This document shows, piece by piece, positions 5,176-57,020 of a stretch of DNA of 64,000 bases. Source of the DNA: Patescibacteria group bacterium (GTDB lineage Bacteria; Patescibacteriota; Minisyncoccia; Ryanbacterales; GWA2-47-10b). Each line of letters starts with the position of its first letter. The stretch's first letter is position 1. Both the position numbers and the translations under genes were made by a program. The stretch covers positions 238,097 through 302,096 of the forward strand of contig JBBTSE010000007.1 of assembly GCA_038064855.1 (NCBI GenBank). The letters run 5' to 3'. The notes under the pieces were generated by a model. It had not been told where the DNA came from. It made no database searches and saw only the letters and a program-made list of their open reading frames with translations.

Positions 5176-6975
5176 ATGCTCAATCGCATCAAATATGTTG
5201 TGCGCAAACTATGTGTCCTTGCCAAGACACACAAAAAAATCAGTATCGCGCTTTCAGCTTTTCTTGTACTTGGTGGGTATTGGATATACTCCTCGCTCAC
5301 CTCTGGCGATGAAGCAACGCACTATATCCTTGCATCCGCAGAAAAGCAAACAATCATCTCAACCGTCACGGGTAGCGGACAGGTATCTGCATCAAACCAA
5401 ATCGATCTCAAGCCGAAAGCGTCGGGCAACGTGGTCTATATGGGAGTTACCGCAGGAGCACAGGTAAAAACGGGTGCACTCATAGCGCAACTCGACGCGC
5501 GTGATGCACAAAAAGCGGTGCGCGACGCAGAAGTGAATCTTGAGAGTGCAAAACTCTCGCTTGAAAAACTACAAAAACCAGCTGATACGCTTTCTACCAT
5601 ACAAGCAGAAAATACACTTGCACGCGCCAAGGAGTCGAGACAGCAGGCTGAAGATGATCTGGTAAAAGCCTTTGAAGACGGGTTTAATGATGTCGCTGAC
5701 GCATTTCTTGATCTTCCTGACATTATGACGGGCCTACAAGAAATATTCTATAATCAAACAGCGGGCCTCGGCAACAGCGGGCAAAACAACATCTCCTACT
5801 ATACTGATAAGACAAAGCAGTACAATGAAAAAGCGATAGACTTTAAAACAGATCTAGAAACAAAATTCCAAATAGCACGCGAAGCATACGATGCCAACTT
5901 CCAAAATTATAAGCTAGTCACGCGCTCATCAGACAAAGAAGCCATAGAAAAAATAATTGCGGAGACCTATGAGACGGCGAAAACTATCGCGGAAGCTACC
6001 AAAAGCGGCAACAACCTCATCCAACTCTATCGAGATGAGCTCACAATACGCAATGTCGTCCCCGCATCAGTCTCCACCACCCATCTCGCAAACCTCAACA
6101 CCTATACTGGCAAAATAAATACTCACCTTTCGGGCTTGCTGGCTGCGAAAAAGGCTATCACTGACAGCCGCGATACTATTCTCAATGCTGACCGCTCAAT
6201 CCAGGAAAATACCGAGTCGCTCGCAAAACTCCGAGCCGGCGCCGATGCGCTCGATCTCAAATCAGCCGAACTCACCGTGCAACAGCGCCAGAATGCGCTC
6301 GTCGATGCCAAAGAAAAACTTGCTGATTATTTTATACGCGCGCCGTTCGATGGCACGGTTGCAAAGCTCAATATCAAAAAGGCAGATTCGGTTACCAGCG
6401 GCACTGCTGTTGCGACATTTATCACCAAACAGCAGCTTGCCGAACTTTCACTCAACGAAGTCGACGTGGCAAAAATTAAAATAGGACAAAAGGCGACTCT
6501 CACATTTGACGCTATTGAAGGATTGGAAATTTCTGGCTCGGTAGTCGAGATTGATACTGTTGGAACCGTCACACAGGGTGTAGTCACCTACAACATCAAA
6601 ATTGGCTTTGATACCCAAGATGATCGTATTAAACCTGGTATGAGTACGAGCGCATCCATTATCACCGACGTACGCCAAGACGTAATCGCAGTACCGTCAG
6701 CTGCCGTTAAATCACAAGGCAACGTTTCTTATGTAGAGATTCTCGAGAGTACAGCATCAGCTGAAGAGATTATCGCGGGGATTACTTCATCAGTAGCGCC
6801 GCGCCAACAACAGGTGGAAGTAGGCATCTCGAGCGACACCATGACAGAGATACGTTCTGGTATCGATGTAGGTATCAAGGTCGTCACGCGCATGGTCACC
6901 GACACAACCGCTACTACCCAGCAAGCACCAAGCTTGATTGGTGGCGGCAGTGGCGGTGTACGCATCCCCCGCTAA
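5176..6975 (+). CDS. Efflux periplasmic adaptor subunit (HlyD/MacA family) with a long coiled-coil
   Basis: N-terminal TM anchor, beta-barrel/lipoyl-like segments around a ~250-aa coiled-coil, and a C-terminal Gly-rich tail. Immediately upstream of a MacB-like ATPase and permease. Confidence 0.75.
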   Translation: MLNRIKYVVRKLCVLAKTHKKISIALSAFLVLGGYWIYSSLTSGDEATHYILASAEKQTIISTVTGSGQVSASNQIDLKPKASGNVVYMGVTAGAQVKTGALIAQLDARDAQKAVRDAEVNLESAKLSLEKLQKPADTLSTIQAENTLARAKESRQQAEDDLVKAFEDGFNDVADAFLDLPDIMTGLQEIFYNQTAGLGNSGQNNISYYTDKTKQYNEKAIDFKTDLETKFQIAREAYDANFQNYKLVTRSSDKEAIEKIIAETYETAKTIAEATKSGNNLIQLYRDELTIRNVVPASVSTTHLANLNTYTGKINTHLSGLLAAKKAITDSRDTILNADRSIQENTESLAKLRAGADALDLKSAELTVQQRQNALVDAKEKLADYFIRAPFDGTVAKLNIKKADSVTSGTAVATFITKQQLAELSLNEVDVAKIKIGQKATLTFDAIEGLEISGSVVEIDTVGTVTQGVVTYNIKIGFDTQDDRIKPGMSTSASIITDVRQDVIAVPSAAVKSQGNVSYVEILESTASAEEIIAGITSSVAPRQQQVEVGISSDTMTEIRSGIDVGIKVVTRMVTDTTATTQQAPSLIGGGSGGVRIPR

Positions 6976-12938: not shown

Positions 12939-13250
12939 TTATACCTTTATTTCTATCGAAAAAGTAACAATATCATCTTTTGCTATATCCTCTTTTCTAC
13001 GAATATCGGCTTTTAACGGCAAAAGATACGCGCCCGTTTTTTTGTCTGGAAATATTGAGGTTCTCCAGCTTGTTTTGCCGATAGCAACCTCGACCGGCAA
13101 ACTCCCCCACCCGCGCGCCACGCCGCCAAATATTTTTTTGATCTGGCTCGATTGTTTTTTTGGAAGAGTTATAAAATGCCACGCACTAGGCCCGTGATAA
13201 AGCCATACCTTGGCCCGCATAGTAAATGTATTGTTTTGCATATCTCTCAC
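12939..13250 (-). CDS. DUF1905-like small protein
   Basis: ~100 aa with the WHFITLPKK...IGKTSWRTSIFPDKKTGAYLLPLKADIRRKEDIAKDD pattern recalled for DUF1905 proteins. Assignment is from memory of the family, not a search. Confidence 0.5.
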   Translation of the reverse strand: MRDMQNNTFTMRAKVWLYHGPSAWHFITLPKKQSSQIKKIFGGVARGWGSLPVEVAIGKTSWRTSIFPDKKTGAYLLPLKADIRRKEDIAKDDIVTFSIEIKV

Positions 13251-13256
13251 AACATC

Positions 13257-13278
13257 CTCACATTCTTAAGTTTGTTGG
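13257..13278. promoter_or_regulatory. Palindromic element copy 1 (CTCACATTCTTAAGTTTGTTGG)
   Basis: 19/19 core match with one substitution. Lies just 3' of the winged-helix regulator gene. Confidence 0.35.
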
Positions 13279-13282
13279 TATG

Positions 13283-13570
13283 TCATTGCACAGCTTGAAA
13301 TGATTTGAGAAATTGAACAAAGGTTTTGCCGTAGGGTGAGAGTGAGTGTTCTACAAATTTGCCACGATAGGTCTTGTTGATGAGTCCTGCCAGATGCAGA
13401 CGCCGCGTGTGCTCGCCGATTGTCTTTCCGTTTGCCTCGAGTTCGTCAACGATGCCATCGAGAGTCACACCGTCGCGTTTTGCGATCAAAAGTAATATCG
13501 CAATACGATAATGATTGGCGATCCCCTTCAAGTGCCGTTCCATCTGCTTTGGTGATTTCATCTTTGCCAT
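13283..13570 (-). CDS. Winged-helix transcriptional regulator (ArsR/HxlR-like)
   Basis: 95 aa with [32 protein letters not shown]...[13 protein letters not shown], an HTH and wing pattern. Flanked on both sides by the CCAACA-N10-TGTTGG palindrome. Confidence 0.65.
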
Positions 13571-13591
13571 ACATTCATGATAAACGATATA

Positions 13592-13613
13592 CCAACATTC
13601 TCAAGTTTGTTGG
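13592..13613. promoter_or_regulatory. Palindromic element CCAACA-N10-TGTTGG, copy 2 of 3; candidate operator
   Basis: CCAACATTCTCAAGTTTGTTGG. Near-identical copies at 15336-15357 and 13257-13278 (one mismatch each). Lies between the regulator gene and the DHFR remnant. Confidence 0.45.
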
Positions 13614-13700
13614 CCTGTTGTGTTGTGTAAAGATTAAATGGGACCGTCCAACCTCCATACTTAAAACCGCCCGATACATCTTCCTCCGGCCCTCCTGGCG

Positions 13701-13752
13701 CCTGCATCACACCGTCTAACGTCACAAATTCAATTACAATTATTTTTCTCAT
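13701..13752. repeat. 52-bp direct repeat, copy 1, carrying the DHFR-like gene start
   Basis: CCTGCATCACACCGTCTAACGTCACAAATTCAATTACAATTATTTTTCTCAT is ~94% identical to 15372-15423. Confidence 0.8.
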
Positions 13753-13764
13753 GATGATATTTTA

Positions 13765-14154
13765 TTATAAATTGACTTCTTTAAATTCGAGCTGGGCCTT
13801 ACCTTCTTTTTTGCCGGGTTGTTGAAAGTTTATGAGCAAACCTTGCTTGATCTTGAGACGCCTCATATAGTTTCTGATCTGTGTATCTTCTGCGACTCCG
13901 AGCTCGCTCGATACCGCCTTTAATTCAACGAGCACCCTTTCTTTGCCGATATGCGCAATCAAATCCAAATACCCCTCGCCTACATAATGCCCTTTGTACA
14001 AAAGCTCTACTACTTTTTGTGAATCATACCTGATCTTTGCAGAACGAAGCCCGACCTGCATGGCCTTGTCATACACCGACTCGGTGAACCCCGACCCCAG
14101 CACCTTATAAACATCTTTTGCTATTGCTTTGATTTTTGATATATTTTTGTTCAT
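13765..14154 (-). CDS. GxxExxY family protein (PD-(D/E)XK nuclease superfamily)
   Basis: GFTESVY (GxxExxY) motif, then GYLDLIAH...VLVELKAV...GLLINF, matching the conserved core of GxxExxY proteins. Its ATG overlaps the upstream gene's stop (TAATG). Confidence 0.8.
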   Translation of the reverse strand: MNKNISKIKAIAKDVYKVLGSGFTESVYDKAMQVGLRSAKIRYDSQKVVELLYKGHYVGEGYLDLIAHIGKERVLVELKAVSSELGVAEDTQIRNYMRRLKIKQGLLINFQQPGKKEGKAQLEFKEVNL

Positions 14155-14546
14155 TATAAAATACTCGAATATTCAGAATAATTTTCTTTGATCAATCTTT
14201 TCCAATTCGTGGTTTCGTTTCCGCCGCCTAAATCATTTTTATGATATACGAGTAGAACACGAACTTTGCTTTCATCTCTATGAATCGCGATGATACATCT
14301 ATTGCCCGAGCCGTGACGAGACTCTTGGATGCCAGCGATCTTAAATTCAGTTTTACAAATCTTTATGCTCCTGTCACCTGAAACATATATGGTCTCTGCA
14401 ATACTTTTCTCAAACAACAAATCAACATAGGTAAACTCAAGCATTAAACCTTTTAGCGTTCGATCCCATGCGCCCTTATACTTCTTAGCAAAAGTTCGGA
14501 TGAAATGCCTTTCAGTGAAAGACCTAAAAACAACATCGTACTTCAT
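14154..14546 (-). CDS. Putative toxin, RelE/ParE-like, partner of the Panacea-domain protein
   Basis: 130 aa. The C-terminal GNRCIIAIHRDESKVRVLLVYHKNDL resembles the RelE/ParE GYRIIY...V.IL.IGHRKDIY core. Sits 2 nt after the Panacea gene and overlaps the GxxExxY gene start. Confidence 0.5.
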   Translation of the reverse strand: MKYDVVFRSFTERHFIRTFAKKYKGAWDRTLKGLMLEFTYVDLLFEKSIAETIYVSGDRSIKICKTEFKIAGIQESRHGSGNRCIIAIHRDESKVRVLLVYHKNDLGGGNETTNWKRLIKENYSEYSSIL

Positions 14547-14548
14547 GG

Positions 14549-15223
14549 CTAATATATCTCATCAGGATTCTCTTGGGTAAAAATATCGTATGAGACGATA
14601 TCGTTGTCTCCTGCAAACATGTACGGCATTTGTTTATGCGTGAATGCCACGATATCAACCGTTCGCCTTCCTTTCCATTTTTCATTGATTTTTTCAATTA
14701 ACTTCAACTCTCCTTTTGAGATTTCGGCTAGACTTGCCCTTGCACCACTCCGAGTTTGAGAAACGAGCATTGCACCATTTCCAGTTTGTTCTATAGAAAC
14801 CTCTCCAGCGTCAAACATCTCGTCAATAAGACGAAAATAGGTATCAGCGACTGGACCGTATTGGATTTTTCTATACTGCATGCCACTCATACTCTTGAGG
14901 TGTACATAAAACCAGCCAAAATCGGCGAAATAAAGCAACTTAGCCAATTTAGTCTTTGGTATATTTTTATTGATTCGCAAAAAAGCGTGTATCATTTGTT
15001 TATATTTCTCGTAGTTAGGAAGTTCCCCATGCTCTAAGTCATCGAGTGAGATGTTTAAAACTCCCGAGAGCTTCTCAAATTCTCCAAGCGTAAGCTCGCG
15101 CTTACCTTGCTCAATAGCAATATAGGAAGGCCGGGAAATGCCTAACTTCAAAGCCAAATCAGCCTGGGAAAGCGCTTTTTTAGATCGAGCGTCTTTAACC
15201 AATTTTGCATATTTTGTAACCAT
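14549..15223 (-). CDS. HTH-XRE + Panacea (DUF4065) domain protein; putative antitoxin and autoregulator
   Basis: N-terminal Cro/C1-type HTH (LSQADLALKLGISRPSYIAIEQGKRELTLGEFEKLSGVL). C-terminal TKLAKLLYFADFGWFYVHL...YGPV matches the Panacea/DUF4065 signature (KLqKLLYyA). Confidence 0.75.
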   Translation of the reverse strand: MVTKYAKLVKDARSKKALSQADLALKLGISRPSYIAIEQGKRELTLGEFEKLSGVLNISLDDLEHGELPNYEKYKQMIHAFLRINKNIPKTKLAKLLYFADFGWFYVHLKSMSGMQYRKIQYGPVADTYFRLIDEMFDAGEVSIEQTGNGAMLVSQTRSGARASLAEISKGELKLIEKINEKWKGRRTVDIVAFTHKQMPYMFAGDNDIVSYDIFTQENPDEIY

Positions 15224-15252
15224 ATCTACAGTGTATATTGATATGTAAAAAA

Positions 15253-15284
15253 GTCAAACATTGATGTTGATAAACTTGACATCA
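15253..15284. promoter_or_regulatory. Overlapping inverted repeats upstream of the Panacea operon; candidate operator
   Basis: GTCAA-N18-TTGAC and TGATGT-N11-ACATCA palindromes sit 30-60 nt upstream of the 15223 start codon (minus strand). Confidence 0.35.
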
Positions 15285-15335
15285 TAAATAGCTGGGAGCA
15301 TAGCTCTGTCTACAGTTTTCATCGTATGCAACATC

Positions 15336-15357
15336 CCTACATTCTCAAGTTTGTTGG
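15336..15357. promoter_or_regulatory. Palindromic element copy 3 (CCTACATTCTCAAGTTTGTTGG)
   Basis: Same element, sitting 14 nt from the second DHFR-remnant repeat. Confidence 0.4.
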
Positions 15358-15360
15358 GTT

Positions 15361-15423
15361 GTCCTAGTAAGCCTGCATCACGCCATCTAACGTCACAAAT
15401 TCAATTACAATGATTTTTCTCAT
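15361..15423 (-). pseudogene. Second, 21-codon remnant of the DHFR-family gene start
   Basis: [19 protein letters not shown], then directly the palindromic element. Confidence 0.55.
15372..15423. repeat. 52-bp direct repeat, copy 2
   Basis: CCTGCATCACGCCATCTAACGTCACAAATTCAATTACAATGATTTTTCTCAT. On the minus strand it encodes [19 protein letters not shown] (21 codons). Confidence 0.8.
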
Positions 15424-15944
15424 GGGCCTATATTATCACCCCTCATCCAACAATCTATGGAGGATCGTAAAAATTTAGCACCCCAAGACACCGATTCAGC
15501 GTCTCGAACATTTTTTATATTTTTTGCTCCGTGAAAAAGATTGCAACGAATTTGGTAGACAAAATCAAAGACCTGTTCTAAGTTACTTTCATCTTGCAGA
15601 TAAACCAGTGTATTTGCACCTGGTCGCATATCTTGGATTGGAGAAAACTCTTTTAATTTAACTGCGTAGTTTGCCGACAAATTCCACCTAGTTAAAATAC
15701 AATCCTTAAAATCACTCTTATTTTGGTAAAAATAATTTAGTTTATCTCGATCCCGACCACACCGAGAAATCTCGGTTAAATATGCATCGAATATCATCCA
15801 GCACAGCATGAAGTCAAGCCATGGATCTTGCCATATTTTAAGCTTTACATTATTTAACTTGGCATTCCACCAAAACATTCTTTCTTTAAAGTCTTGATTA
15901 ACTTCATTTGTATACGAAAGAACCATAAAACTATTTTGCTTCAA
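15420..15944 (-). CDS. Hypothetical protein with R-x4-H (HEPN-like) motif, 3'-overlapping the Type IIG RM gene
   Basis: 174 aa. YQIRCNLFHGAKN carries an R-x4-H spacing. Its start overlaps the last 14 nt of the RM gene, suggesting co-transcription. The HEPN call is inference. Confidence 0.45.
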   Translation of the reverse strand: MKQNSFMVLSYTNEVNQDFKERMFWWNAKLNNVKLKIWQDPWLDFMLCWMIFDAYLTEISRCGRDRDKLNYFYQNKSDFKDCILTRWNLSANYAVKLKEFSPIQDMRPGANTLVYLQDESNLEQVFDFVYQIRCNLFHGAKNIKNVRDAESVSWGAKFLRSSIDCWMRGDNIGP

Positions 15945-18744
15945 TCGTCTTAATTTCCACAGGAGTGAGAGTGTAGAGTTTATATACCCGCTGATCTATT
16001 TCATTTTCCAGTCTTTCAACTTCGGCTTTGAGTGCATGCCATTTGTCAGTGTTTGCCGAAGTCTTGTTTAGTTCAGCATTACGAGCCGCAACCGTATCAA
16101 CGAGGTATGCAATTTTGCTCTGTTCGCTTTCGCCGACCTTGAGCAACGGAATGTCCATCAACGGTTCTTTATCAATTTGTAACTGCTCGCCCTGTTTTTT
16201 GCCTTTATGCTTGAGCCAGAAGTAGGCAAGATTTGAGTTTAGTATGCCCGTCAAGTATTTCAGGTTGATGTTTTCAAGCTTCAAGATAAGGAACGCTCGC
16301 GTAACATAGCAAGGAAAATCAACATAGGTGAATGCCGGATGCATTGTTTTTCGCAACAAGAAAATCGCTTGTCCTTTGAAAAACTTTTCTTCGCGCGGAC
16401 GATGTAAGCCATAAGGAGCAAACGCCGAAGTTAGGATTTTCTTGAAGCGATCAAGGTGATTTTTGAGATTTGGAAACTCACCAATATGTTCCCTGAAATA
16501 CTTGTCGGCGTAAATGATTTTGTACTGGCTTTCTCTGTCGCTTAAATACCTGTTTATCTGTGAAGTGCCGTAGTAAGGTTTTAGGTACTCACGCTCTTTT
16601 TCGTTGAGGTTCATTCCGGCAATCACCGAGTTCCCCAAGACGAACACCCCATCTCCTTTCTTGATGGTGTCGTCTTTCAATTTCGCCAAATGTGATTCCG
16701 AGACGAAATCTTGCAAGACATCTATCCCGTTTCCAATATCGTCCTTTGATAGTTTGAAGTTGCCCACTTTCTCTATCTTTTCCAAGACCTCGGAAACTGT
16801 GTCGTTTGAAAAACTGATGGATTTCCCGCCAGCGTTTACCGATTTTATAGCCGCTTCGTAAACAACTGAGTTTTCAACCTTTTTTTGCAAACCAGAGGAC
16901 AGAAGTGTGGCAACTTCTTCACTTGTCGTATTCTTGCCCGTGATCTTTGCATATTGAACCTTATATGATTTTCGCGGCTTTCTCTTTTGGAAAACGAAAA
17001 TCATTGTTTGAATGCTCGCGTCTTTGAAAACTCGGAAGTCATTGAAATCAACAAACTTGATGATTTCGCCGCTACTCAAAATCTTCTCGCGGAAAATACT
17101 TGCTCCGGCACTTCCGAGCCAACTTGAAGGTGCGATAAAGCTGAAATATCCGCCATCTTTGAGTTGGTCAATGGCGCGGGCGGCGAAAAGCGTCCAGATG
17201 TCCATTTTGCCCTGGTAGTAGGGACTTTCGTGCAAACCATTGAACGCGGCACGATTGGTGTCTTCCTTAATGTACGGTGGGTTGCCAATAATGACATCGA
17301 AGCCGCCCTGCTCGGCAACTCCCGCAAACTCTTTTTCAATATCAAACGGCTTCTGTTCCAACTCACCTTCAGCGAGAAGCGAGTTTCCGACGCGAAGGTT
17401 ATTTTGAAGCACTGGCAGTTTCGTCCTTTGTTGTAAAACTTTCAGAAGAAGGTTGAGCTGGGCGATTTCTACAGCTTGTCCGTCCAAATCGATACCATAG
17501 ATGTTGTCTTTCAAAATATCAAACTTGGTGAACAGCGAGCGTTTGTCTACACTTCCCAAAATCGTGTCGTAGGCGACGGTCAGGAACGAGCCAGAACCGC
17601 ACGCGGGGTCTAGGACTTTGACTTTGTGCATGTCTTTTGGTTTTGTCTTTTTCAATACTTCGCCGAGCGTTTCGCGGACGATAAACTCCACGATGTATTT
17701 CGGCGTGTAGTAAATACCTTGTGATTTGCGCTTTGATTTTACTTTCTCCTCGCCCTTGCGGACTTGGACGAAAGAAAGATATTGCTCGTAGATGCCGCCG
17801 AGCACGTCGGCGGAGATAGCGGAAAAATCGTAGCGATAGCCATCTTTTGTTTCGTACAGTCCTTTTAAGATTTCGGCGAAAACTTTGTCGTCAGCTTCCC
17901 ATTCTTCGCAGTAGTGGAGAGCAAACAGTTTTGAATTGTAGTGTTCGTCAAACCAACGGAAGCCCCGTATCATTCGCTTCCAGATATTCGTGCGCTTCGT
18001 CTCGTATTCGCGCAACAACGCTTGCAAAATAACTTGCTCAATTTTGCGATCTTCGGCAGTGCGGATGAAAATGAGGCGATCAAGAATACGCTGGACGCCC
18101 TCGTCTATTTCGTCAGTGGAAAGGTTGTTGCGCTTTTTGAACTCGGCAGAAAGCGCCACCCGCCAACTCATCAAATCCTCAAACAGTTTTTCGCCGACTT
18201 GCTTGCGCTTAGTGAGTTTGCCCCATTTTTCGGCTTCCTTATCCAAGAGCCGCTGTTCAAAACTCTCTTTTGAGAGAAGCCAAAGCTGATCAAAGCGGTC
18301 TAGGAACTCGTGGACGCCGATTTCAATGAACAGGTTGCGCGATACATCTTTCGGCGAGATTTCGGCGTTGAAAATCTTGATGGTCTCAAAGTCGGTGAGT
18401 ATTGCCCACGTCGCGCTTTTGTTCCAAGCATAATTTATTGCCTGTTCCGCCCATTTCCACTCGTCCAAATCAACTTTCATCGCTTTTGCTTCAAGGAAAA
18501 ATGTTGGGATACCACTCAAACGGAACGCGAGATCCACTCTGCCACCGGATACGTTCTCCTCAGTAGTAACTTCGCCGTCATTGGTGAGGTTACGCATATC
18601 CCAACCCAAAAACTCGAACAGCGGCTCTATGAACTCATTGCGAGTCTGTGCCTCGTTGTACGATTTGATTTTGCCATCCTGCAAGACGCGCTGATATTTC
18701 TCAACGAGTTTTTGTATTGATTGTTTTGCGTCTTGCTTGTTCAT
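15931..18744 (-). CDS. Type IIG/IIL restriction-modification enzyme (MmeI-like fused endonuclease and N6-adenine methyltransferase)
   Basis: 937 aa. N-terminal PD-(D/E)XK-like module (GGRVDLAF...FLEAKAMK), motif I VLDPACGSGSFL, motif IV IIGNPPY, and a long C-terminal target-recognition region. Size matches MmeI-family enzymes. Confidence 0.8.
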   Translation of the reverse strand: MNKQDAKQSIQKLVEKYQRVLQDGKIKSYNEAQTRNEFIEPLFEFLGWDMRNLTNDGEVTTEENVSGGRVDLAFRLSGIPTFFLEAKAMKVDLDEWKWAEQAINYAWNKSATWAILTDFETIKIFNAEISPKDVSRNLFIEIGVHEFLDRFDQLWLLSKESFEQRLLDKEAEKWGKLTKRKQVGEKLFEDLMSWRVALSAEFKKRNNLSTDEIDEGVQRILDRLIFIRTAEDRKIEQVILQALLREYETKRTNIWKRMIRGFRWFDEHYNSKLFALHYCEEWEADDKVFAEILKGLYETKDGYRYDFSAISADVLGGIYEQYLSFVQVRKGEEKVKSKRKSQGIYYTPKYIVEFIVRETLGEVLKKTKPKDMHKVKVLDPACGSGSFLTVAYDTILGSVDKRSLFTKFDILKDNIYGIDLDGQAVEIAQLNLLLKVLQQRTKLPVLQNNLRVGNSLLAEGELEQKPFDIEKEFAGVAEQGGFDVIIGNPPYIKEDTNRAAFNGLHESPYYQGKMDIWTLFAARAIDQLKDGGYFSFIAPSSWLGSAGASIFREKILSSGEIIKFVDFNDFRVFKDASIQTMIFVFQKRKPRKSYKVQYAKITGKNTTSEEVATLLSSGLQKKVENSVVYEAAIKSVNAGGKSISFSNDTVSEVLEKIEKVGNFKLSKDDIGNGIDVLQDFVSESHLAKLKDDTIKKGDGVFVLGNSVIAGMNLNEKEREYLKPYYGTSQINRYLSDRESQYKIIYADKYFREHIGEFPNLKNHLDRFKKILTSAFAPYGLHRPREEKFFKGQAIFLLRKTMHPAFTYVDFPCYVTRAFLILKLENINLKYLTGILNSNLAYFWLKHKGKKQGEQLQIDKEPLMDIPLLKVGESEQSKIAYLVDTVAARNAELNKTSANTDKWHALKAEVERLENEIDQRVYKLYTLTPVEIKTIEAK

Positions 18745-18774
18745 AACCTATTTTAGTTCAAATTTTGGGAACTT

Positions 18775-20503: not shown

Positions 20504-20884
20504 TTATTTCTTCTCTTCTTTGCTGTAGTCGTACCAGACTACTTCAATATTGTGCCCGTCAGCATCGTGTACAAACGCGGCGTAGTAACCGGGCCAGTAT
20601 TCGGTGCGGTATCCGGGGGCGCCGTTGTCTGCCGCACCCGCGGCCAGTGCTACTTTGTAAAACTCATCTACCTGCTCTTTATTTTTTGCCTCAAAGGCAA
20701 CGTGTAGTGGGACCACGCCCTTGGGGTTCTTCCCTATCCAAAAGCTGGTATGCCCGCCCTCTATGAAGCCTGCGGCCTCGCCGTATTCCATATTGTTCTC
20801 GTAGCCGAGTGGTGCGAGTGCTTTGATATAAAACTCTTTTGCTTTTTTGTAGTCGCTCACGGGGAGCCCTGTATGTGCAATCAT
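20504..20884 (-). CDS. VOC family protein (glyoxalase/bleomycin-resistance fold)
   Basis: 126 aa with a MIAHTGLPVSDYKKAKEFY...HVAF...FVHDADGHNIEVV pattern. Confidence 0.75.
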   Translation of the reverse strand: MIAHTGLPVSDYKKAKEFYIKALAPLGYENNMEYGEAAGFIEGGHTSFWIGKNPKGVVPLHVAFEAKNKEQVDEFYKVALAAGAADNGAPGYRTEYWPGYYAAFVHDADGHNIEVVWYDYSKEEKK

Positions 20885-42203: not shown

Positions 42204-42815
42204 TTATTCTTTGAAGACAATAAATTTGTATCCGAGGAAGTTCCAGAAAAGTGAGACGGCGGTTGCGGCTATCTTCGAGATCGTCAAGATTCTGTCTGCT
42301 GAGAGCGCATCGAGCGCACCGACACCGTGGATAATCGCTACCGAAACAACAGTATTGAGACCAAGCCCGACAAGAGTAACGACTACAAAAGCGATAAACT
42401 CTTTACTGGATGGTGGCGCTTTCTCAGCAAAAGTCCACATACGCTGCCAAAAATAACTATTGATGATAGCAATAGCTGACGCGACAACAAGAATCGGCAA
42501 CATCTCCGCGCTCTTGGGATCAATCTCGTACGCACGGCGCAGAGTCGTGGCGATACCAATATCAACACATACATTCATCAGGCCCACGATGCCAAAGCGC
42601 CCCAGCTGCTTGAGAAACAAAATATGAGAAAAAAGTTTTGACGCGATGATGTAAGCAACAAATTCGGCAATCGGCAAAATGATAAATAACGACCAGAGCG
42701 GCAAAGAAAAACCACCGTACGCAAGCGTCACTTCATTGTTAATCAAAAGTAAACGCCCAAAAAAAGCCGTAACAAGGCCTATGACTGCTGCGTACAGATA
42801 ATCTTTTTTAAACAT
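42204..42815 (-). CDS. GtrA-family membrane protein with N-terminal extension
   Basis: GRFGIVGLMNVCVDIGIATTL ... INSYFWQRMWTF core. Start at MFKKDY. Confidence 0.6.
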   Translation of the reverse strand: MFKKDYLYAAVIGLVTAFFGRLLLINNEVTLAYGGFSLPLWSLFIILPIAEFVAYIIASKLFSHILFLKQLGRFGIVGLMNVCVDIGIATTLRRAYEIDPKSAEMLPILVVASAIAIINSYFWQRMWTFAEKAPPSSKEFIAFVVVTLVGLGLNTVVSVAIIHGVGALDALSADRILTISKIAATAVSLFWNFLGYKFIVFKE

Positions 42816-45267
42816 GCATGTATCGTTTTTTAATTTCTGCCTCCACCTCGATGCGTGGTCGGCCGTAGGTAATGCGCGATATACCAACCGCGCGTTCGCG
42901 TAACGCCGGATCACCCTTTGCTGGTGCGCGCATCTGCATATTGAACGCGCGTGAAGTCTGACCTCCTATGAGCATTTTAACATAGGCATTTCGGTTATCA
43001 ATGTTTAACAGATCGCGTGCGCCAAACACGGGACTAAACTGCTTTTCTAAGAACTCGCCGTCATCAGATCCTACCCGAAACGCGATCATACTCCCCACAT
43101 TGCCAAATACGGCCTTTTTGATATCGTCTTCGAGCTGCCCTAAAAACTGATGCGCCACAATGAGCGAGAGTCGGTACTTGCGTGCCTCTGATAAAATCGT
43201 GGCGATAGACTTGGTGGTGACATTTTGAAACTCGTCGATATAACAGAAAAAGTCTTTGCGCGCTGATTCGTCAGCGATATCTACGCGCGAGAGCGCGGCA
43301 ATGAGTATACGCCCTACGATAATAAGACCCAACAATGATGAGTTGAGCTCGCCCAAGCGTCCTTTTGAAAGATTGATAAGCAAAATCTTTTGGGTATCCA
43401 TCGCCTCACGAAAACTAAAAGCGCTTTTTTCCTGCGCGATAATCGGGCGCATAATATCATTGGATAAAAAGGTATCGAACTTGGAGGTGATGTACGGCAC
43501 CATGTTGGCCAAGCTTGACTCGCCTCCTGCCTTCTCTGCTATTTTTTGCCAAAAACTATTGACCACCATATTTGAAGATCGCGAAAGTTTATAATCACGA
43601 AACTCTTTGTCGACAAGCACACGGCTCACCTCCATGAGCGTGTTGCCTGACTGCGGGTCTTCCATGACGAGCATAGTGGCGTTGCGAAAATACTGCTCAA
43701 ACATCGGACCACCCGCGGTTTTCATATCATAGAGTTTATTGAAAATATCTAAGAGTTCGTTGACGATGAGAGATTTTTGCTCGGGGAAGCGCGTATCATA
43801 CTCCAAAAAGTTAAGCCCCATGGGTCGCTCGATATCGCCCGGGTTAAAGTAGATCACATCTTCAGCGCGCTCGGGCGGGATTGATTCAAGAAGTGACTCG
43901 ATATCAGAACCATGCGGATCAATAAAACAAACACCGCGCCCTGCTAAAATATCTTGACGCGCGAGTTCTTTGAGAAAGGTTGATTTGCCAGTGCCGGTCT
44001 GCCCGATGACATACATATGGCGTCTGCGATCATCATCAGCCATATACACAGATCGGGTCTCGCCTCGAAATACACTATCGCCGAGCAACATACCTGAAGC
44101 AGGCATGTTGGGAGGTGGCGGCGCCTCGCGCGACTTGAGATACGCTATATTGGGTTGCGAAAAACCCGCGTACGGCAAATGAAAGATGCTCGCGAGCTCG
44201 GATGATGAAAGATAGATTTTTTCTGACTCGCCAAAAAGACGAAATGAAAAACGATATAAAAGATCTTCGAGTGGCTTCGCACCCATGCGCCGAAACGCGA
44301 GCTGATTGCCCTGCGGATTATTAAACTGTTCAAAGGCCGCCTCAAGTCCCGCCATGATATTGGTAGTCTCGGCGGGAGTGGCAGCTGACGCGATGATGCG
44401 AATCACCACATCAAAGGCGGATTGCGAGGCCTTGGTCTCGATCTGTTTTGCGAGATCTTCATCTACGGCTTTTGGTTTTTCCTCTGATTTTTTCTCGTCT
44501 TTGGGCTTTGAGCCGGCGCTAGTAACCGCGTCTTGCAGTTCTTTACCAAAACCGCCGAGCGCATCTTTAAATGAAACACCGCTACGCACCTTGCGCGCGA
44601 CTTCATTGCCTTTTTGATAAAGTGGTATGCGCGCGGGGCGCACGACTACTTGGAGAGCGGCGCCATCACCCTCGGTCTTGAGTTTGGCAAACGCGCCCGT
44701 GATAATCTCGAGCGGATCAAAGCCAAGATCGTTGTAGGTGCGAAGCGACAGTAACATATTTTTGGTGGTAACCGCCACTGACCCCGCGCTCACGCCTGAC
44801 GGATGAAAGATATTATAATCTTTTGATTCTGATACCTTTGCTGATGGGAAAAATGAACTGAGCTGATTTGCAAAAAACTGTGACGCAAAGCGTGGCACTG
44901 CCACATAAAAAATGACCTCAGAGCCAATGTGCGGGAGAGCCGCCTCAAAAGTAATCGACGGGCTCCCAAAACGCATATGATGGATACCACTCGTCTTGAG
45001 CGACGAGAGCGCGGCGTAGAGCTGCTCCATCGCTATCATAATATCTTTGGGTTCTTTTTTCTTTGCTTCGCCCGCGGCTGGATTTTCATCGTGCGGGATG
45101 AGCACCGCATAGAGTACCATACCAAGCGCGCCTGAAACCTCTGCTTCGCGCTGTGGACGCATTACCAAAAAATAAAAAAGCAGAGCCGTGATGAGTACCA
45201 GCCCTATTGTTGCCGCAATAATACCGAGGAGAAGCGGATCCATAATACTATGAATTGCCCGAAGCAA
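42808..45267 (-). CDS. VirD4/TraG/TraD-like P-loop ATPase (T4SS coupling-protein family)
   Basis: N-terminal TM, Walker A YVIGQTGTGKST, Walker B-like CYIDEFQN, ~820 aa with the T4CP-like arrangement. Confidence 0.6.
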   Translation of the reverse strand: MLRAIHSIMDPLLLGIIAATIGLVLITALLFYFLVMRPQREAEVSGALGMVLYAVLIPHDENPAAGEAKKKEPKDIMIAMEQLYAALSSLKTSGIHHMRFGSPSITFEAALPHIGSEVIFYVAVPRFASQFFANQLSSFFPSAKVSESKDYNIFHPSGVSAGSVAVTTKNMLLSLRTYNDLGFDPLEIITGAFAKLKTEGDGAALQVVVRPARIPLYQKGNEVARKVRSGVSFKDALGGFGKELQDAVTSAGSKPKDEKKSEEKPKAVDEDLAKQIETKASQSAFDVVIRIIASAATPAETTNIMAGLEAAFEQFNNPQGNQLAFRRMGAKPLEDLLYRFSFRLFGESEKIYLSSSELASIFHLPYAGFSQPNIAYLKSREAPPPPNMPASGMLLGDSVFRGETRSVYMADDDRRRHMYVIGQTGTGKSTFLKELARQDILAGRGVCFIDPHGSDIESLLESIPPERAEDVIYFNPGDIERPMGLNFLEYDTRFPEQKSLIVNELLDIFNKLYDMKTAGGPMFEQYFRNATMLVMEDPQSGNTLMEVSRVLVDKEFRDYKLSRSSNMVVNSFWQKIAEKAGGESSLANMVPYITSKFDTFLSNDIMRPIIAQEKSAFSFREAMDTQKILLINLSKGRLGELNSSLLGLIIVGRILIAALSRVDIADESARKDFFCYIDEFQNVTTKSIATILSEARKYRLSLIVAHQFLGQLEDDIKKAVFGNVGSMIAFRVGSDDGEFLEKQFSPVFGARDLLNIDNRNAYVKMLIGGQTSRAFNMQMRAPAKGDPALRERAVGISRITYGRPRIEVEAEIKKRYMHV

Positions 45268-52956: not shown

Positions 52957-53262
52957 CTAGAAGAGAACCTGCTTGCCGACAATAATCTTGTAGACATTTT
53001 CAATGAAATCGCCGCCAGCATACCCCACAATAAACGCGATGCCAGGAGTCACCATGCCGCCAAGTATAGGAATGCCTGCTTCGCGTATAGCAATAGCAGT
53101 GAGTACGCCAACAACACCTGAAAGAAACATGGTTCCCAAAAAATACGGGAGGTTGAACTTTGTGTCTTTAAACTGAAATTGGTATTTAATAAAACCGACA
53201 AGCCCACGCACAACCCCGCCGCCGAAGCCTGCAATCAAGATGTATACATAAAAACTCTCCAT
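52957..53262 (-). CDS. Small 3-TM membrane protein
   Basis: Hydrophobic helices. Preceded about 59 nt upstream by the 32-bp repeat. Confidence 0.5.
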   Translation of the reverse strand: MESFYVYILIAGFGGGVVRGLVGFIKYQFQFKDTKFNLPYFLGTMFLSGVVGVLTAIAIREAGIPILGGMVTPGIAFIVGYAGGDFIENVYKIIVGKQVLF

Positions 53263-53323
53263 GATATTTTTAGTGTATCATGAGGGGCAAATGCAGCACA
53301 TGTGCTGATGTGTGTATTATATA

Positions 53324-53355
53324 GCGACAGCAAGGCGAGGCCTTGATAATAACAT
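53324..53355. repeat. 32-bp perfect direct repeat, copy 1
   Basis: GCGACAGCAAGGCGAGGCCTTGATAATAACAT is identical to 54777-54808. Contains the CAAGGC-GAG-GCCTTG mini-palindrome. Confidence 0.9.
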
Positions 53356-53482
53356 CCCCGAGATCGCATCGCCCCTGCCTGTCGGCAGGGATCATCGCAT
53401 CAACAAAAAGTGGCACAATATAGAAAAGATTCTAGCCGGCGACCTCGACCCCATCATCAAAGCGTTTGAAAAACAAGCCTAA

Positions 53483-54718
53483 TTATTGCGCCACAACAAT
53501 ACTAAACGACGCGTCGCTAGAATCACATAACGGCTTTCCGGGAACAGTTGGGCTATCTTTGCTATTGTCGCAAAGAGTAATTTTATACTGTCCGGGTAAG
53601 ATATTAGTCCAATTTGACGGCAGTAAGAAACTGTTTTTCCCGTCACTTCCGTTGACCTTAATTGAATATACATTGCCACTTACGGGACTATACAACATTG
53701 CGTCGAGATATTCACCATAGTAATTCTGAGACCAAACTAAATTTATAGAAGAGTTTTGGATGTATTGCTCTCCCCCATTCGGTGAAAGAACTTTGATAGA
53801 GGGCAAACTGTTTTGCTGACCAACTTTTACTGTAATTGAAGAACGAACGGTTTGCGCACTATCATCAGTAACAGTAAACGTCGCTGTATATGTTCCAACA
53901 CTTTGATAGGCATGCTGAAAAGTAGCAGATTGTGCTCGTGTTCTCCCGTCGTATGCTTGGCCGAATCCGCCTAGCATACCGCAACTGTTATCTCCCCAGC
54001 AAACATCATATGCGAGGTTGCCCTTTTCGGAATCGCTTGCTTTTATGGTCCACGTACCAGTCTCCCCAACGCCGAGACCGGTCGGACCGCTTATCTCGCC
54101 AATAACTGGCGGCTGGTTGCCACCTTGACCGGGACACGCGGCAAACTCACACTTAGGTCCCGTGCGGCTTACATAGGAACCATCAGGGCAGAGTTTTGCT
54201 TCTTGTGTGCAGGCGATAGGTGGAGTAACGACCTTAATACCACACCCATACAGCTGATTCAATTTCTTGCGTGTGGCGGGGCCCACATAGCCCGTGCCAT
54301 GCGCGAGACCCACTGGCGTAAGAATCTCGCTTTTGTATTTTTCTTGAAAACCGACGACTGCGGAAGCCGTGTCTTCTCCGAACGTGTCTCTGAAATTATC
54401 GCTGTCCGGATGAATTGGATTTGCCCCAATTATATTTTCTAGATTAAAAATTTTATGGAGCGCTTCCGTGTCACCACCTTGATCACCGATCCTCAAATTT
54501 GTGTTAAATGTATGACACCATGCCGCTGGAACAGCAGGTACCGTCTTGCCCGTCAATGCTGACTCGACATTAGCGACTACCGTGGTATCTGCGCCGAATG
54601 AGCGGAGTAAACCAAGTATTGCATCAATCTGCTGCTGTGTGAGCCCTGCTGCAGATGCTACGGGGGCGATGGCGAAAAGGCTTATGACAACCCCAAAAAT
54701 GAGTTTTTTCATATGCAT
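53483..54718 (-). CDS. Secreted protein with peptidoglycan-binding-like domain and C-terminal beta-rich repeat domains
   Basis: Signal peptide. PG_binding_1-like segments (GDTEALHKIFNLENIIG, VVGFQEKYK...VGPATRKKLNQLYG). Downstream Cys-rich and Ig/PKD-like segments. Confidence 0.6.
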   Translation of the reverse strand: MHMKKLIFGVVISLFAIAPVASAAGLTQQQIDAILGLLRSFGADTTVVANVESALTGKTVPAVPAAWCHTFNTNLRIGDQGGDTEALHKIFNLENIIGANPIHPDSDNFRDTFGEDTASAVVGFQEKYKSEILTPVGLAHGTGYVGPATRKKLNQLYGCGIKVVTPPIACTQEAKLCPDGSYVSRTGPKCEFAACPGQGGNQPPVIGEISGPTGLGVGETGTWTIKASDSEKGNLAYDVCWGDNSCGMLGGFGQAYDGRTRAQSATFQHAYQSVGTYTATFTVTDDSAQTVRSSITVKVGQQNSLPSIKVLSPNGGEQYIQNSSINLVWSQNYYGEYLDAMLYSPVSGNVYSIKVNGSDGKNSFLLPSNWTNILPGQYKITLCDNSKDSPTVPGKPLCDSSDASFSIVVAQ

Positions 54719-54776
54719 CTAGTGTACCTCCCCCAACGCAACTTTGAAAGCCCCTTGTGGACAAAATATTTCTGTG

Positions 54777-54808
54777 GCGACAGCAAGGCGAGGCCTTGAT
54801 AATAACAT
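54777..54808. repeat. 32-bp perfect direct repeat, copy 2
   Basis: Identical to 53324-53355. Lies 12 nt from the tRNA-Ala 3' end and ~57 nt upstream of the 54718 start. Confidence 0.9.
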
Positions 54809-54820
54809 GATGATTCGGTT

Positions 54821-54891
54821 GTGGACCTGCGGAGAATCGAACTCCGACACCTCGGATGCAAACCGAGTGCACTGCCACTATGCTACAGGCC
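54821..54891 (-). tRNA. tRNA-Ala (anticodon UGC)
   Basis: Manual fold: acceptor GGGCCUG/CAGGUCC with the G3:U70 alanine identity pair. Anticodon stem CUCGG/CCGAG with loop UUUGCAU. T-arm GGTTCGATTCC. CCA not encoded. Confidence 0.85.
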
Positions 54892-54978
54892 CATTTGAAA
54901 AACGCCCCCGAGGGAGCGTTTTGATAGTATCATATATTGGCTTATCGGCAAACTATATCCACTACCCACGCAATAAGC

Positions 54979-55590
54979 TTATTCAAGATCCATCATAGGA
55001 GTAGTCTCATCGTCTTCAAAATCATCTTCGAGTCTCCAATCGTCAACGCTACGCGAATCAGTCGGCTCCGCGCGCTCGATAACTGACGCACCAGATCTAT
55101 CAACCCTCACAAAGACTTTCAGGCGACCTCGGCGTTCGAGCTCTTTACCTTGACCTGCCTCCACAAAGTACCGCTCGATACCATACTCAATGCCAAGACC
55201 AGAGACTCCCCTATCCCAAACATTTCTCGGTGTGTCCTTGGGGATACTGGTCACCTTACCCTTGATGGCCGTGCTGTAATCAGTCGGCTGATTTTTTGAA
55301 ACACCAGTCGCGCGCCAAACATCATCATAACTATTTTTCTCAAGCGTCACATAGACTGTATCTCCTACCGAAAACTTTTCATCTGAAAGATACTGACTTA
55401 TCGTCGATATTTCATAGCGCAATGCTACATATTCACCGCGAATCAAATCACGCGGGTCAACGGGTACGGTACGCAACACTACCTGAGTACCGGTAGAAAG
55501 CGTGTAGAGTCGCTGGGCGAAAAAACCACCGATCACTGCGAGTTGCAAAGCGACAAAGACGATAAAGAGTAAAAGTTTTTTGTTGCTCAT
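54979..55590 (-). CDS. GDYXXLXY domain protein (membrane-anchored)
   Basis: LIRGEYVALRYEI, a variant of the GDYXXLXY motif, after an N-terminal TM. Overlaps the upstream DUF2157 gene by 4 nt. Confidence 0.6.
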   Translation of the reverse strand: MSNKKLLLFIVFVALQLAVIGGFFAQRLYTLSTGTQVVLRTVPVDPRDLIRGEYVALRYEISTISQYLSDEKFSVGDTVYVTLEKNSYDDVWRATGVSKNQPTDYSTAIKGKVTSIPKDTPRNVWDRGVSGLGIEYGIERYFVEAGQGKELERRGRLKVFVRVDRSGASVIERAEPTDSRSVDDWRLEDDFEDDETTPMMDLE

Positions 55591-57020
55591 AGTGCAGGAC
55601 TGCTATTCATTTTTGTGATAAGTGATCTGCGAAAGCGTTCAAGGGCTACCGCCAGAACCAAGAGGAGCAAGCCACCCGCGATAAAGGCAAGAGAAGTCGG
55701 GATCTCGAGCGCGAAGAAATCAATATAGCGCGAGATAACATGTACCAAGAAAAAGAGAAGGCCGAGATTTACAAAAAGTCTGCGGCGCTCAAAATATCCG
55801 AGAATGATCAACATAATATTGAACGCGAGAAGCACCGCATTCCACGGCAACACATAGGGATGAAAGTAAGTGTCACCATATCCAAACCCACCCATGAGCG
55901 CCTGCCGAGCAGACTGGCCAGCATCTATAGGGAAAAGAGCGAATACCAAACCAAACACAGCAAAAACCGCGAGCAACCCGCCCTCACGAAGAGTAAGACG
56001 ACGCTCCTCTGGCGTACCATGCATCATAAAGAATGCCGCAAGCAAAACCCCCGTCAGCACCACCAGCCCCCAAAAAACATAGAGCGCAACGCCAGTAAGA
56101 GCAAAGGGTTTATCCCACAAAAAGAGCATAGTATTCCAACTTAAGATATAGGTTGGCACCGCAAACGCCGCACCGCCCAAAAAGCGCGTAGTAAAACTGA
56201 AATCTTCTCCGTTTGGCAACGCACGCATAAGACGCCCTGCGAGCATAAGTACGATGCCTAAAAAGAAATAATTGAGCATGACCTGTACGACGACAGCCTC
56301 ATTGAGATTTTCGATATTCCAATGCCACGCGGCATTGGCAACACCGAACCACCCTAAAAACGCGAGGAGTGCAAATACATATGCGACACGAAAACGGAAA
56401 TACACGATAACTGGCAAAACGATGACAGCCAGTAAAAGTATGAAAAGATAATTGGGAATCGGCTGCGTATTATTGAAAAAGCCTACATCAAAGAAACTGC
56501 GTGAAAGCGACCATATGGCAAATACTACCGTTGAGAGCACCATGAGCCATTCGTCAGCAAGGAGAAGTACGAGTGGCAAAAGTCCCCCGGCCCACATCAA
56601 AAAGAGAGTTGCTGGATTGGCATTGGTATGAAAGAGCTGCGCTACCAAAAAGAGGCCTGTGCCATACAGAATGCCGCCGATAAGAATAACTGCTTGTCCA
56701 ATCTTTGCGTAGTCTTTGATGTACTTGAGCCAATAGCCAACACCGTACGCAAACGCCGTGGACGCAAGGATAATAGCTATCTTCCCTACGACTGGAATCT
56801 CCTGCCAGTTTGAAGCAAAAAACAAAAGCGCGCCGAGACCGATAAGTACGGCGCCCAAAATAGCGATAACCGTCACTACGCGGTTGCCTGCACGCGCCTG
56901 CAACGCCTCCTCGGCATTGATACCCTCTGCCTGCAAAATGCGGCGAGCCGTGCGGAGCGAGATGACCCCCCGCTCGACCCACGATTCTACTTTTTGAGAA
57001 AGTTCATTCATGGAATACAC
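55587..57020 (-). CDS. DUF2157/DUF4401-like polytopic membrane protein
   Basis: 477 aa. Soluble N-terminal ~50 aa, then more than 10 TM helices. Canonical partner of GDYXXLXY proteins. Confidence 0.6.
   Translation of the reverse strand: MYSMNELSQKVESWVERGVISLRTARRILQAEGINAEEALQARAGNRVVTVIAILGAVLIGLGALLFFASNWQEIPVVGKIAIILASTAFAYGVGYWLKYIKDYAKIGQAVILIGGILYGTGLFLVAQLFHTNANPATLFLMWAGGLLPLVLLLADEWLMVLSTVVFAIWSLSRSFFDVGFFNNTQPIPNYLFILLLAVIVLPVIVYFRFRVAYVFALLAFLGWFGVANAAWHWNIENLNEAVVVQVMLNYFFLGIVLMLAGRLMRALPNGEDFSFTTRFLGGAAFAVPTYILSWNTMLFLWDKPFALTGVALYVFWGLVVLTGVLLAAFFMMHGTPEERRLTLREGGLLAVFAVFGLVFALFPIDAGQSARQALMGGFGYGDTYFHPYVLPWNAVLLAFNIMLIILGYFERRRLFVNLGLLFFLVHVISRYIDFFALEIPTSLAFIAGGLLLLVLAVALERFRRSLITKMNSSPAL

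Follow-up and report, generated by a model that had tools for sequence, protein, structure and literature searches.

A perfect 32-bp direct repeat around an apparently transplanted chromosomal segment beside tRNA-Ala in a Patescibacteria genome

Several described systems leave a directly repeated sequence around inserted DNA or copy a segment from one chromosomal locus into another. The template-switch model, formulated as microhomology-mediated break-induced replication and fork stalling and template switching (MMBIR/FoSTeS), was developed mainly for eukaryotic copy-number changes, and the target-site duplications made by transposons measure 2 to 15 bp. A cis-mobilizable element (CIME) is an element without integration genes that has kept both of its attachment sites, attL and attR (PMC5704250). 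Here, we analyze a 64-kb stretch of DNA (the window) from contig JBBTSE010000007.1, part of a Patescibacteria metagenome-assembled genome (MAG) from Hainich groundwater, in which two exact copies of a 32-bp sequence, designated R, enclose a cassette of 1,421 bp that carries a single gene and lies between tRNA-Ala and the gene of a 101-aa membrane protein. On balance, and with measured confidence, we read the two copies as an insertion scar, that is, as a junction sequence that became duplicated when a segment of the chromosome entered the space between tRNA-Ala and the 101-aa gene.

The locus shares with MMBIR/FoSTeS outcomes a segment copied from another chromosomal locus, 7 to 8 nt of junction microhomology, the absence of a recombinase and of terminal inverted repeats, and a geometry in which re-entry behind the exit point duplicates the target flank; a clean 32-bp duplication around a 1.4-kb bacterial insert is, however, no textbook outcome of this model, and one junction was assessed. 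Like a CIME, the cassette is small, lacks integration genes, is bounded by identical direct repeats, and sits in a hotspot beside a conserved tRNA gene at which relatives have tandem modules. In contrast to a CIME, no related integrative and conjugative element, integrative and mobilizable element, or attP was found for it, and its cargo is a chromosomal paralog plus a fragment of a housekeeping gene rather than decayed transfer genes. The locus also recalls the islets that adjoin tRNA genes, with a variable interval that starts at the tRNA 3' end, has other content in relatives, and carries surface-protein cargo, but it has no integrase, and the cassette is not bounded by a duplication of the tRNA 3' end, of which only an 8-nt echo (GTCCACAA) is present. 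The target-site duplications of transposons and casposons and the repeat duplication of CRISPR arrays likewise place a directly duplicated target around inserted DNA; 32 bp is nevertheless far longer than the former, no transposase, Cas1, or terminal inverted repeats accompany it, and the 1,453-bp spacing is unlike that of CRISPR repeats. Finally, Xer/dif modules (IMEX, pdif) resemble the cassette in being recombinase-less and in having sites of ≈28 bp with a partial palindrome, whereas R lacks the 11-6-11 architecture, does not lie at a GC-skew switch, and has no Xer gene nearby.

The repeat and the segment that it encloses

R reads GCGACAGCAAGGCGAGGCCTTGATAATAACAT on the plus strand and ATGTTATTATCAAGGCCTCGCCTTGCTGTCGC on the minus strand, the strand on which all local genes lie, and its two copies recur with a period of 1,453 bp (Table 1). 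No third match with three or fewer mismatches is found in the window, none of 100 shuffled controls contains a match, and the next-best site in the window agrees at 21 of 32 positions, with none at 22 or more; a further 20.8 kb of the source genome (locus L001) holds no match of at least 20/32. The scan for additional copies thus covered ≈85 kb of the source genome. An earlier sequence-only reading of this DNA had described a perfect 32-bp direct repeat far above background and containing the mini-palindrome CAAGGC-GAG-GCCTTG (6-3-6), and both statements hold, the palindrome being present in each copy. The search for the 32-mer that it put forward was run on these ≈85 kb and on public collections, and returned only the two copies; in the collections, which did not include the source genome, the 22- to 24-nt core of R has zero matches among 185,579 species genomes, the JGI metagenomes, and IMG/VR. 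On the gene-proximal side, weak identity between the copies runs 7 nt past R (39 nt at 92%), and on the tRNA side the identity ends sharply. Along the minus strand, the local order is a DUF2157 protein, a GDYXXLXY protein, a terminator-like hairpin, tRNA-Ala(TGC), 12 to 13 nt, R copy B, 58 nt, the 411-aa PKD gene, a 220-nt spacer that holds R copy A, the 101-aa membrane protein gene, and then ROK, dUTPase, a 157-aa protein, and SerRS. The adjacency of copy B to the tRNA 3' end noted earlier is thus correct, with a measured gap of 12 to 13 nt in place of 12 nt. A small open reading frame (ORF) that begins at an ATG within R (MLLSRPRLAVA...) extends for 12 aa from copy A and for 29 aa from copy B, and is unsupported.

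The cassette contains a feature that was absent from the sequence-only reading, namely, a fragment of the 3' end of a class-I peptide chain release factor (RF) gene, the stop codon of which adjoins that of the PKD gene on the opposite strand. An exhaustive phmmer search yielded 19 matches that align to RF C-termini and that Pfam places in the RF-1 domain, and residues 26 to 55 of the fragment (DHRINKKWHNIEKILAGDLDPIIKAFEKQ) are 65 to 79% identical to the C-termini of class-I RFs. In nucleotide alignments with intact RF genes, the homology extends from 53349-53355, the edge of R copy A, to the stop at 53482, and is interrupted by a GC-rich hairpin that adds 16 nt where the RIT codons give way to the DHR codons; the same hairpin is also present at this RF codon in loci L020, L022/L024, and L027. 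The intact counterpart of this arrangement is found in L001, another part of the contig, where an intact RF gene is convergent with the gene of P0041, a paralog of the PKD protein. Window positions 54736-54241 (the 5' third of the PKD gene and ≈25 nt upstream) align with L001 9976-10469 at 67% nucleotide identity, and positions 53476-53390 (the RF 3' end) align with L001 10918-11004 at 79%, such that the closest sequence to the RF fragment is the source genome's own RF gene, from which it has diverged by 21%. Because the cassette contains a piece of an RF gene and is collinear with L001, sequence comparison identifies the DNA between the repeats as a transplanted chromosomal segment of the type "PG-binding (peptidoglycan-binding) gene plus RF 3' end."

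For the protein encoded in the cassette, the second ATG (54712) fits the alignment with the paralog, the NCBI version has 409 aa, and this second ATG is probably the true start. The label "PG-binding secreted protein" given to this gene in the sequence-only reading is borne out in part, in that Pfam detects a PKD domain only and homologs carry PF01471, the basis of the label. Foreign composition of the cassette was considered and rejected: the GC content and GC3 are typical of the source genome, and the codon usage of the PKD gene is mildly deviant, the second highest among 15 genes of similar length and below that of the DUF2157 gene, which is weak evidence either way.

Table 1. Features at and around the two copies of R in the window.
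Feature	Coordinates	Strand	Remarks
Extended -10 box of the 101-aa gene, TGATACACT	53272..53280	-	9 nt before ATG
101-aa membrane protein gene, downstream of R copy A	52957..53262	-	Conserved Patescibacteria family, >1,200 homologs
R copy A	53324..53355	-	Exact match; Logan L005 and L030 begin 2 nt inside; RF alignments start at 53349-53355
Pseudogene, 3' end of class-I RF, (F)PRDRIA / DHRINKKWHNIEKILAGDLDPIIKAFEKQA, then stop	53349..53482	+	phmmer, Pfam, nucleotide alignment
Cassette between the repeats, 1,421 bp	53356..54776	-	Collinear at both ends with L001; separate k=31 unitig L032
GC-rich hairpin CCCTGCC-TGTC-GGCAGGG	53373..53390	+	Gap in alignments to intact RF genes
Secreted PKD-domain protein with PG-binding-like N-terminal domain, 411 aa	53483..54718	-	Pfam PKD_4; homologs with PF01471
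TACACT, -10-like box of the PKD gene	54721..54726	-	8 nt before second ATG; TATACT in paralog P0041
R copy B, tRNA-proximal	54777..54808	-	Exact match; Logan L012 stops 30 nt inside
tRNA-Ala(TGC)	54822..54892	-	ARAGORN and Rfam; left border of the variable interval

The hairpin-bearing RF fragment has counterparts that form a recurrent module in several Patescibacteria. In these, an intact short RF gene and its stop codon are followed, after 8 to 40 nt, by a 22-bp palindrome and a second RF C-terminus (RF'), as in L020 (3690-3935), L022 (minus strand, ≈5236) and the identical L024, L027 (minus strand, ≈1209), and window positions 53349-53482. The palindrome (CCCTGCCTGCC-GGCAGGCAGGG) is perfectly conserved and has no match in Rfam. 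The second copy is ≈65% identical at the nucleotide level, is still open, and begins exactly at the D of DHRIGKKW; in L024, it is followed by a transcription terminator, and the database ORFs P0243 and P0253 bear the palindrome-encoded prefix PCLPAGR-DHR. For comparison of the fragment with first and second RF copies, 87 nt are too short for grouping by identity. The RF gene that this lineage has downstream of rpmE (L001 10900-11634) is called with a length of just 244 aa, short for a class-I RF, and in L018 (462-1432) a frameshift close to the 3' end divides the RF gene in two.

The junction and the tRNA-Ala flank

At the boundary between R copy A and the RF fragment, the last seven nucleotides of copy A on the plus strand (ATAACAT, 53349-53355) lie inside the RF homology, where they match the YNF codons of the intact RF genes in L019 and L001 at five of seven positions and, together with the next base (ATAACATC), match the equivalent position of the RF' module of L022, which has no R, at eight of eight. 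The same seven nucleotides are present in copy B, where they adjoin the tRNA trailer. Since these 7 nt are common to the RF homology and to copy B, the simplest account is that a 7-nt microhomology joined donor to target; this was assessed at the R/RF' junction only. The two copies of R also differ in apparent age from the DNA that they enclose. Two neutral 32-nt copies at the 21% divergence of the RF fragment would be identical at all 32 positions with a probability of only ≈5e-4, and the identity of R thus indicates that its duplication is much younger than the cassette.

The flank in which the cassette lies is variable among relatives, which were found by a search with the lineage-specific 3' half of tRNA-Ala, synteny based on orthologs having given only unrelated contexts. 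Two loci have a tRNA-Ala that is 95 to 96% identical to that of the window, with homology ending at the tRNA 3' end. The first, from a Hainich Patescibacterium (L014), agrees with the window on both flanks, one comprising Ddl and tRNA-Ala and the other ROK, dUTPase, a 161-aa protein, and SerRS; the second, from a Ca. Ryanbacteria MAG (L017), shares a 729-aa protein, Ddl, a membrane protein, and tRNA-Ala. Homology with L014 breaks off at the 3' end of the tRNA (54821) and returns precisely with the ROK start codon (52956), and L017 also diverges immediately after tRNA-Ala. These breaks make the whole 1.86-kb interval, with both repeats and both genes, lineage-specific. As a comparative check, these relatives lack the cassette but also R and the 101-aa gene, their interval content being wholly different, and a site with a single R was not seen there. 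In L014, the interval from tRNA-Ala to ROK (1640-2750) is occupied by two diverged tandem modules of ≈525 to 580 bp, each ending in GGTCCAC, the 3' end of the tRNA, and this different content marks the flank of tRNA-Ala as a hotspot of recombination in this group. The modules look like the outcome of several rounds of integration or duplication at the end of the tRNA. A 138-aa ORF without a Pfam or PHROG match lies in one, a pseudogene copy of it in the other, and the RF fragment has no similarity to this ORF. At the far border of the interval in the window, the stop codon of the 101-aa gene adjoins the ROK start codon; the encoded protein has only a sub-threshold Pfam holin match and no PHROG family, and its nearest orthologs (80 to 85% amino acid identity) are found in unrelated gene contexts with no R upstream.

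Taken with these findings, the insertion scar can be given a mechanism, in which we infer the recent relocation, in this direction, of an old segment. The donor would have been a locus of the type in which a gene for a PG-binding protein is convergent with an RF gene, and, along with the PKD gene and the gene's own ATG-proximal promoter, the segment would have brought ≈130 nt from the 3' end of the RF gene as nonfunctional passenger sequence. Insertion would have been illegitimate and guided by microhomology, through either template switching during replication or repair of a staggered break. In the former, the copying strand would have quit the target just past R and switched to the donor, which it followed from upstream of the PKD gene into the RF fragment; its return to the target at ATGTTAT, a 7-nt match that lies 32 nt back from the point of exit, would have duplicated R. 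Any present function of R, for example, as an upstream promoter element now common to both genes, would then be secondary.

A number of points weigh against this interpretation. All same-species contigs carry the filled site, with neither an empty-site allele on record nor a closer relative found, and k=31 unitigs cannot distinguish such an allele, so the direction and recency proposed above are indicated only indirectly. A target duplication of 32 bp is long for the known bacterial insertion mechanisms, microhomology was assessable at one junction only, and further copies of R were sought in ≈85 kb of the genome. The near-equal spacing of R from the two start codons would, moreover, have to be a coincidence; the sequence-only reading put this spacing at 57 to 59 nt, and it measures 61 nt for the 101-aa gene and 58 or 64 nt for the first or second ATG of the 411-aa gene. 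If the insertion scar is accepted, the locus offers a clear and dated case of surface-protein gene reshuffling in the ultra-small genomes of Patescibacteria, one in which the pasted segment can be traced to its origin by the piece of an essential gene that it still carries and, having landed in a hotspot at a tRNA flank, left a 32-bp duplication. It is at the same time a further example of known genome plasticity and as such of modest interest.

Alternative readings of the repeat

An unlikely but serious alternative is that R is an att-like site and the cassette a recombinase-less mobile module, of the CIME or the integron/dif type. Here, a circular intermediate would have integrated through Campbell-type recombination of its own R with a chromosomal R, the catalyst being a site-specific recombinase with its gene elsewhere or else RecA, for which the 32 bp of homology would have served as substrate; RecA and FtsK are both encoded in the window. 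Perfect, sharply bounded direct repeats around a single-gene insert beside a tRNA gene are what this alternative predicts, the 6-3-6 palindrome is of a kind frequent in recombinase core sites, and CIMEs keep attL and attR without integration genes by definition (PMC5704250). The tRNA-Ala flank, too, behaves as a hotspot in other genomes, with the tandem GGTCCAC modules of L014 and a repeated tRNA 3' end in L015. On the other hand, R does not overlap the tRNA, beginning 12 to 13 nt past it, and no tRNA sequence is found in R or beside copy A. Among the long ORFs called in the window, Pfam detects no integrase, Xer, or transposase at E≤1e-5, BLAST searches against phages and plasmids and PHROG comparisons reveal no similarity for the cassette, and, with the R core absent from the collections searched, neither related elements nor an attP came to light. 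The 3-nt spacer of the palindrome is, in addition, unsuited to the cores of tyrosine recombinases, and the RF homology that runs into R points to an illegitimate join rather than to a dedicated site. What survives of the degraded integrative element beside the tRNA that the sequence-only reading had considered is, therefore, an inserted segment with flanking repeats in a lineage-specific interval; the specifics of tRNA integration are not borne out, given the position of R off the tRNA, the lack of an integrase in the window and of phage or plasmid likeness, the typical GC and GC3, and the microhomology at one junction.

Three related candidates were rejected. R is not a chromosomal dif site: the cumulative GC skew is monotonic across the window, with no switch, and the palindrome is 6-3-6, not 11-6-11. 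A transposon is disfavored by the lack of terminal inverted repeats at the cassette ends and of a transposase among the long ORFs called in the window. A prophage or phage lysis cassette (holin plus PG-binding lysin) finds no PHROG match, and Pfam reports only PKD and the sub-threshold holin; the 101-aa family is also widespread and has its own promoter.

A different proposal, which we regard as quite improbable, holds that R is a cis-regulatory element (promoter, operator, or leader) of two envelope genes, that selection or gene conversion keeps its copies identical, and that the insertion is incidental. It derives some appeal from the position of both copies 58 to 64 nt upstream of start codons on the coding strand, from the first bases of R (TGTTATTAT), which fit the extended -10 consensus TGnTAnnnT and are followed by a palindrome that could be an operator, from the uncommon -10 hexamer TACACT that is common to both genes, and from the perfect identity of the copies despite the age of the cassette. 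TGnTAnnnT, however, occurs 164 times in the window, which makes the match inside R uninformative, and a scan of R for a two-hexamer sigma-70 promoter finds none. Promoters in the source genome appear instead to lie next to the start codon. A TGnTAnnnT box is present 5 to 10 nt before the ATG of 9 of 67 genes versus 0.7 expected at random positions, and TAnnnT before that of 22 of 67 versus 5.6 expected; boxes this close to the ATG imply widespread leaderless transcripts beside some genes led by a Shine-Dalgarno sequence. The extended boxes are mostly 6 to 9 nt before the ATG, examples being those of the starts at 20884, 30672, 35931, 41857, 45589, and 51098.

Both genes next to R have such ATG-proximal boxes (Table 1). 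In orthologs of the 101-aa gene, the position of its box is taken by TGATAGAAT or TGGTATAAT, and no R-like sequence is found upstream of these orthologs (L006-L010) or of the PKD paralog in L001. With the boxes kept in homologs that lack R, neither gene needs R as a promoter. The distance from R to the TACACT box is 46 nt at one gene and 50 nt at the other, out of helical phase. The RNA folds of the two leaders are no better than those of shuffled sequences (z = 0.07 and -0.83), the hairpin of R is weak (-6.9 kcal/mol) and has no U-tract, and neither the leaders nor R match an Rfam family. When two mismatches are allowed, the palindrome has 29 matches in place of the ≈13 expected, spread across all spacer lengths, and this weak excess points to no operator; R itself has only two copies in ≈85 kb. 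Regulatory sites, finally, seldom require identity at 32 of 32 positions with sharp edges. The shared promoter or transcription factor site co-regulating two envelope genes, as envisaged by the sequence-only reading, thus finds no support, with no further copies in ≈85 kb, no R at homologs, no shared helical phase, and no significant fold, and R is most likely an insertion scar rather than a switch shared by two genes. The locus cautions that a perfect repeat upstream of two genes need not be a regulatory motif; the leaderless promoter architecture and the recurrent RF-palindrome-RF' module may merit more attention than R itself. The stretch that separates the promoter of the 101-aa gene from R copy A includes a perfect 14-nt palindrome (CAGCACATGTGCTG; 53294-53307), where orthologs have a terminator.

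More speculatively, and as a long shot, R could be the site of a Patescibacteria system with its recombinase in trans, which would move envelope-protein genes between RF 3' ends and tRNA-Ala hotspots, and the 22-bp palindrome of the RF module could have been left by a very small mobile element that gives an essential gene a replacement end.

The arrangement is reproduced in an independent 195-kb contig from ENA at 100% identity across the region. An end of each of three Logan k=31 contigs lies 30 nt inside R, and one of these (L032; 1,481 bp, three samples) consists precisely of the cassette and 30 nt of R on either end; contigs that break at R, together with the identical independent contig, place R in the reads. 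An origin of the repeat, or of the cassette's position between the two copies, in faulty assembly is, therefore, extremely improbable even for a MAG, a type of source in which short repeats can produce misjoins, because other long contigs keep the same neighbor genes, the k=31 unitigs of several runs break exactly at R as a true repeat of at least 31 nt should, and both the reads and the large k values of metagenome assemblers exceed 32 bp, so that reads span R.

Further observations at tRNA-Ala and elsewhere in the window

The other side of tRNA-Ala is also variable. The DUF2157 and GDYXXLXY genes (54979-57020) lie between Ddl and tRNA-Ala in the window, and a single DUF5671 membrane protein is found at that position in L014 (572-1519) and L017 (1104-2021). 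A strong terminator-like hairpin with a T-run (AAAACGCTCCCTCGGGGGCGTTTTT; 54897-54924, minus strand) ends 5 nt before the first base of tRNA-Ala. The 8-nt sequence GTCCACAA, which corresponds to the tRNA-Ala 3' end and trailer, recurs at 54755-54762, 14 nt downstream of R copy B; this recurrence in the 40-nt flank of the cassette may be the echo of an older integration at the tRNA end or a chance match. In an unrelated MAG (L015, ≈5367-5620), the last ≈15 nt of tRNA-Ala (CCGCAGGTCCACAAA) are repeated ≈200 nt downstream, in what looks like an att-type scar.

Far from R, positions 13200-18750 of the window form a low-GC (0.41) islet of the defense type that encodes a PD-(D/E)XK nuclease, a helix-turn-helix (HTH) plus SocA/Panacea antitoxin-like protein, and a 937-aa type IIG restriction-modification enzyme resembling Eco57I/MmeI. 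Families of 45- to 66-nt repeats flank this islet at 13239-13765 and 15318-15436, including a 66-mer with 88% identity. Among housekeeping genes at 42808-45267, an 819-aa protein has coupling-protein domains of the TrwB/TraG type.

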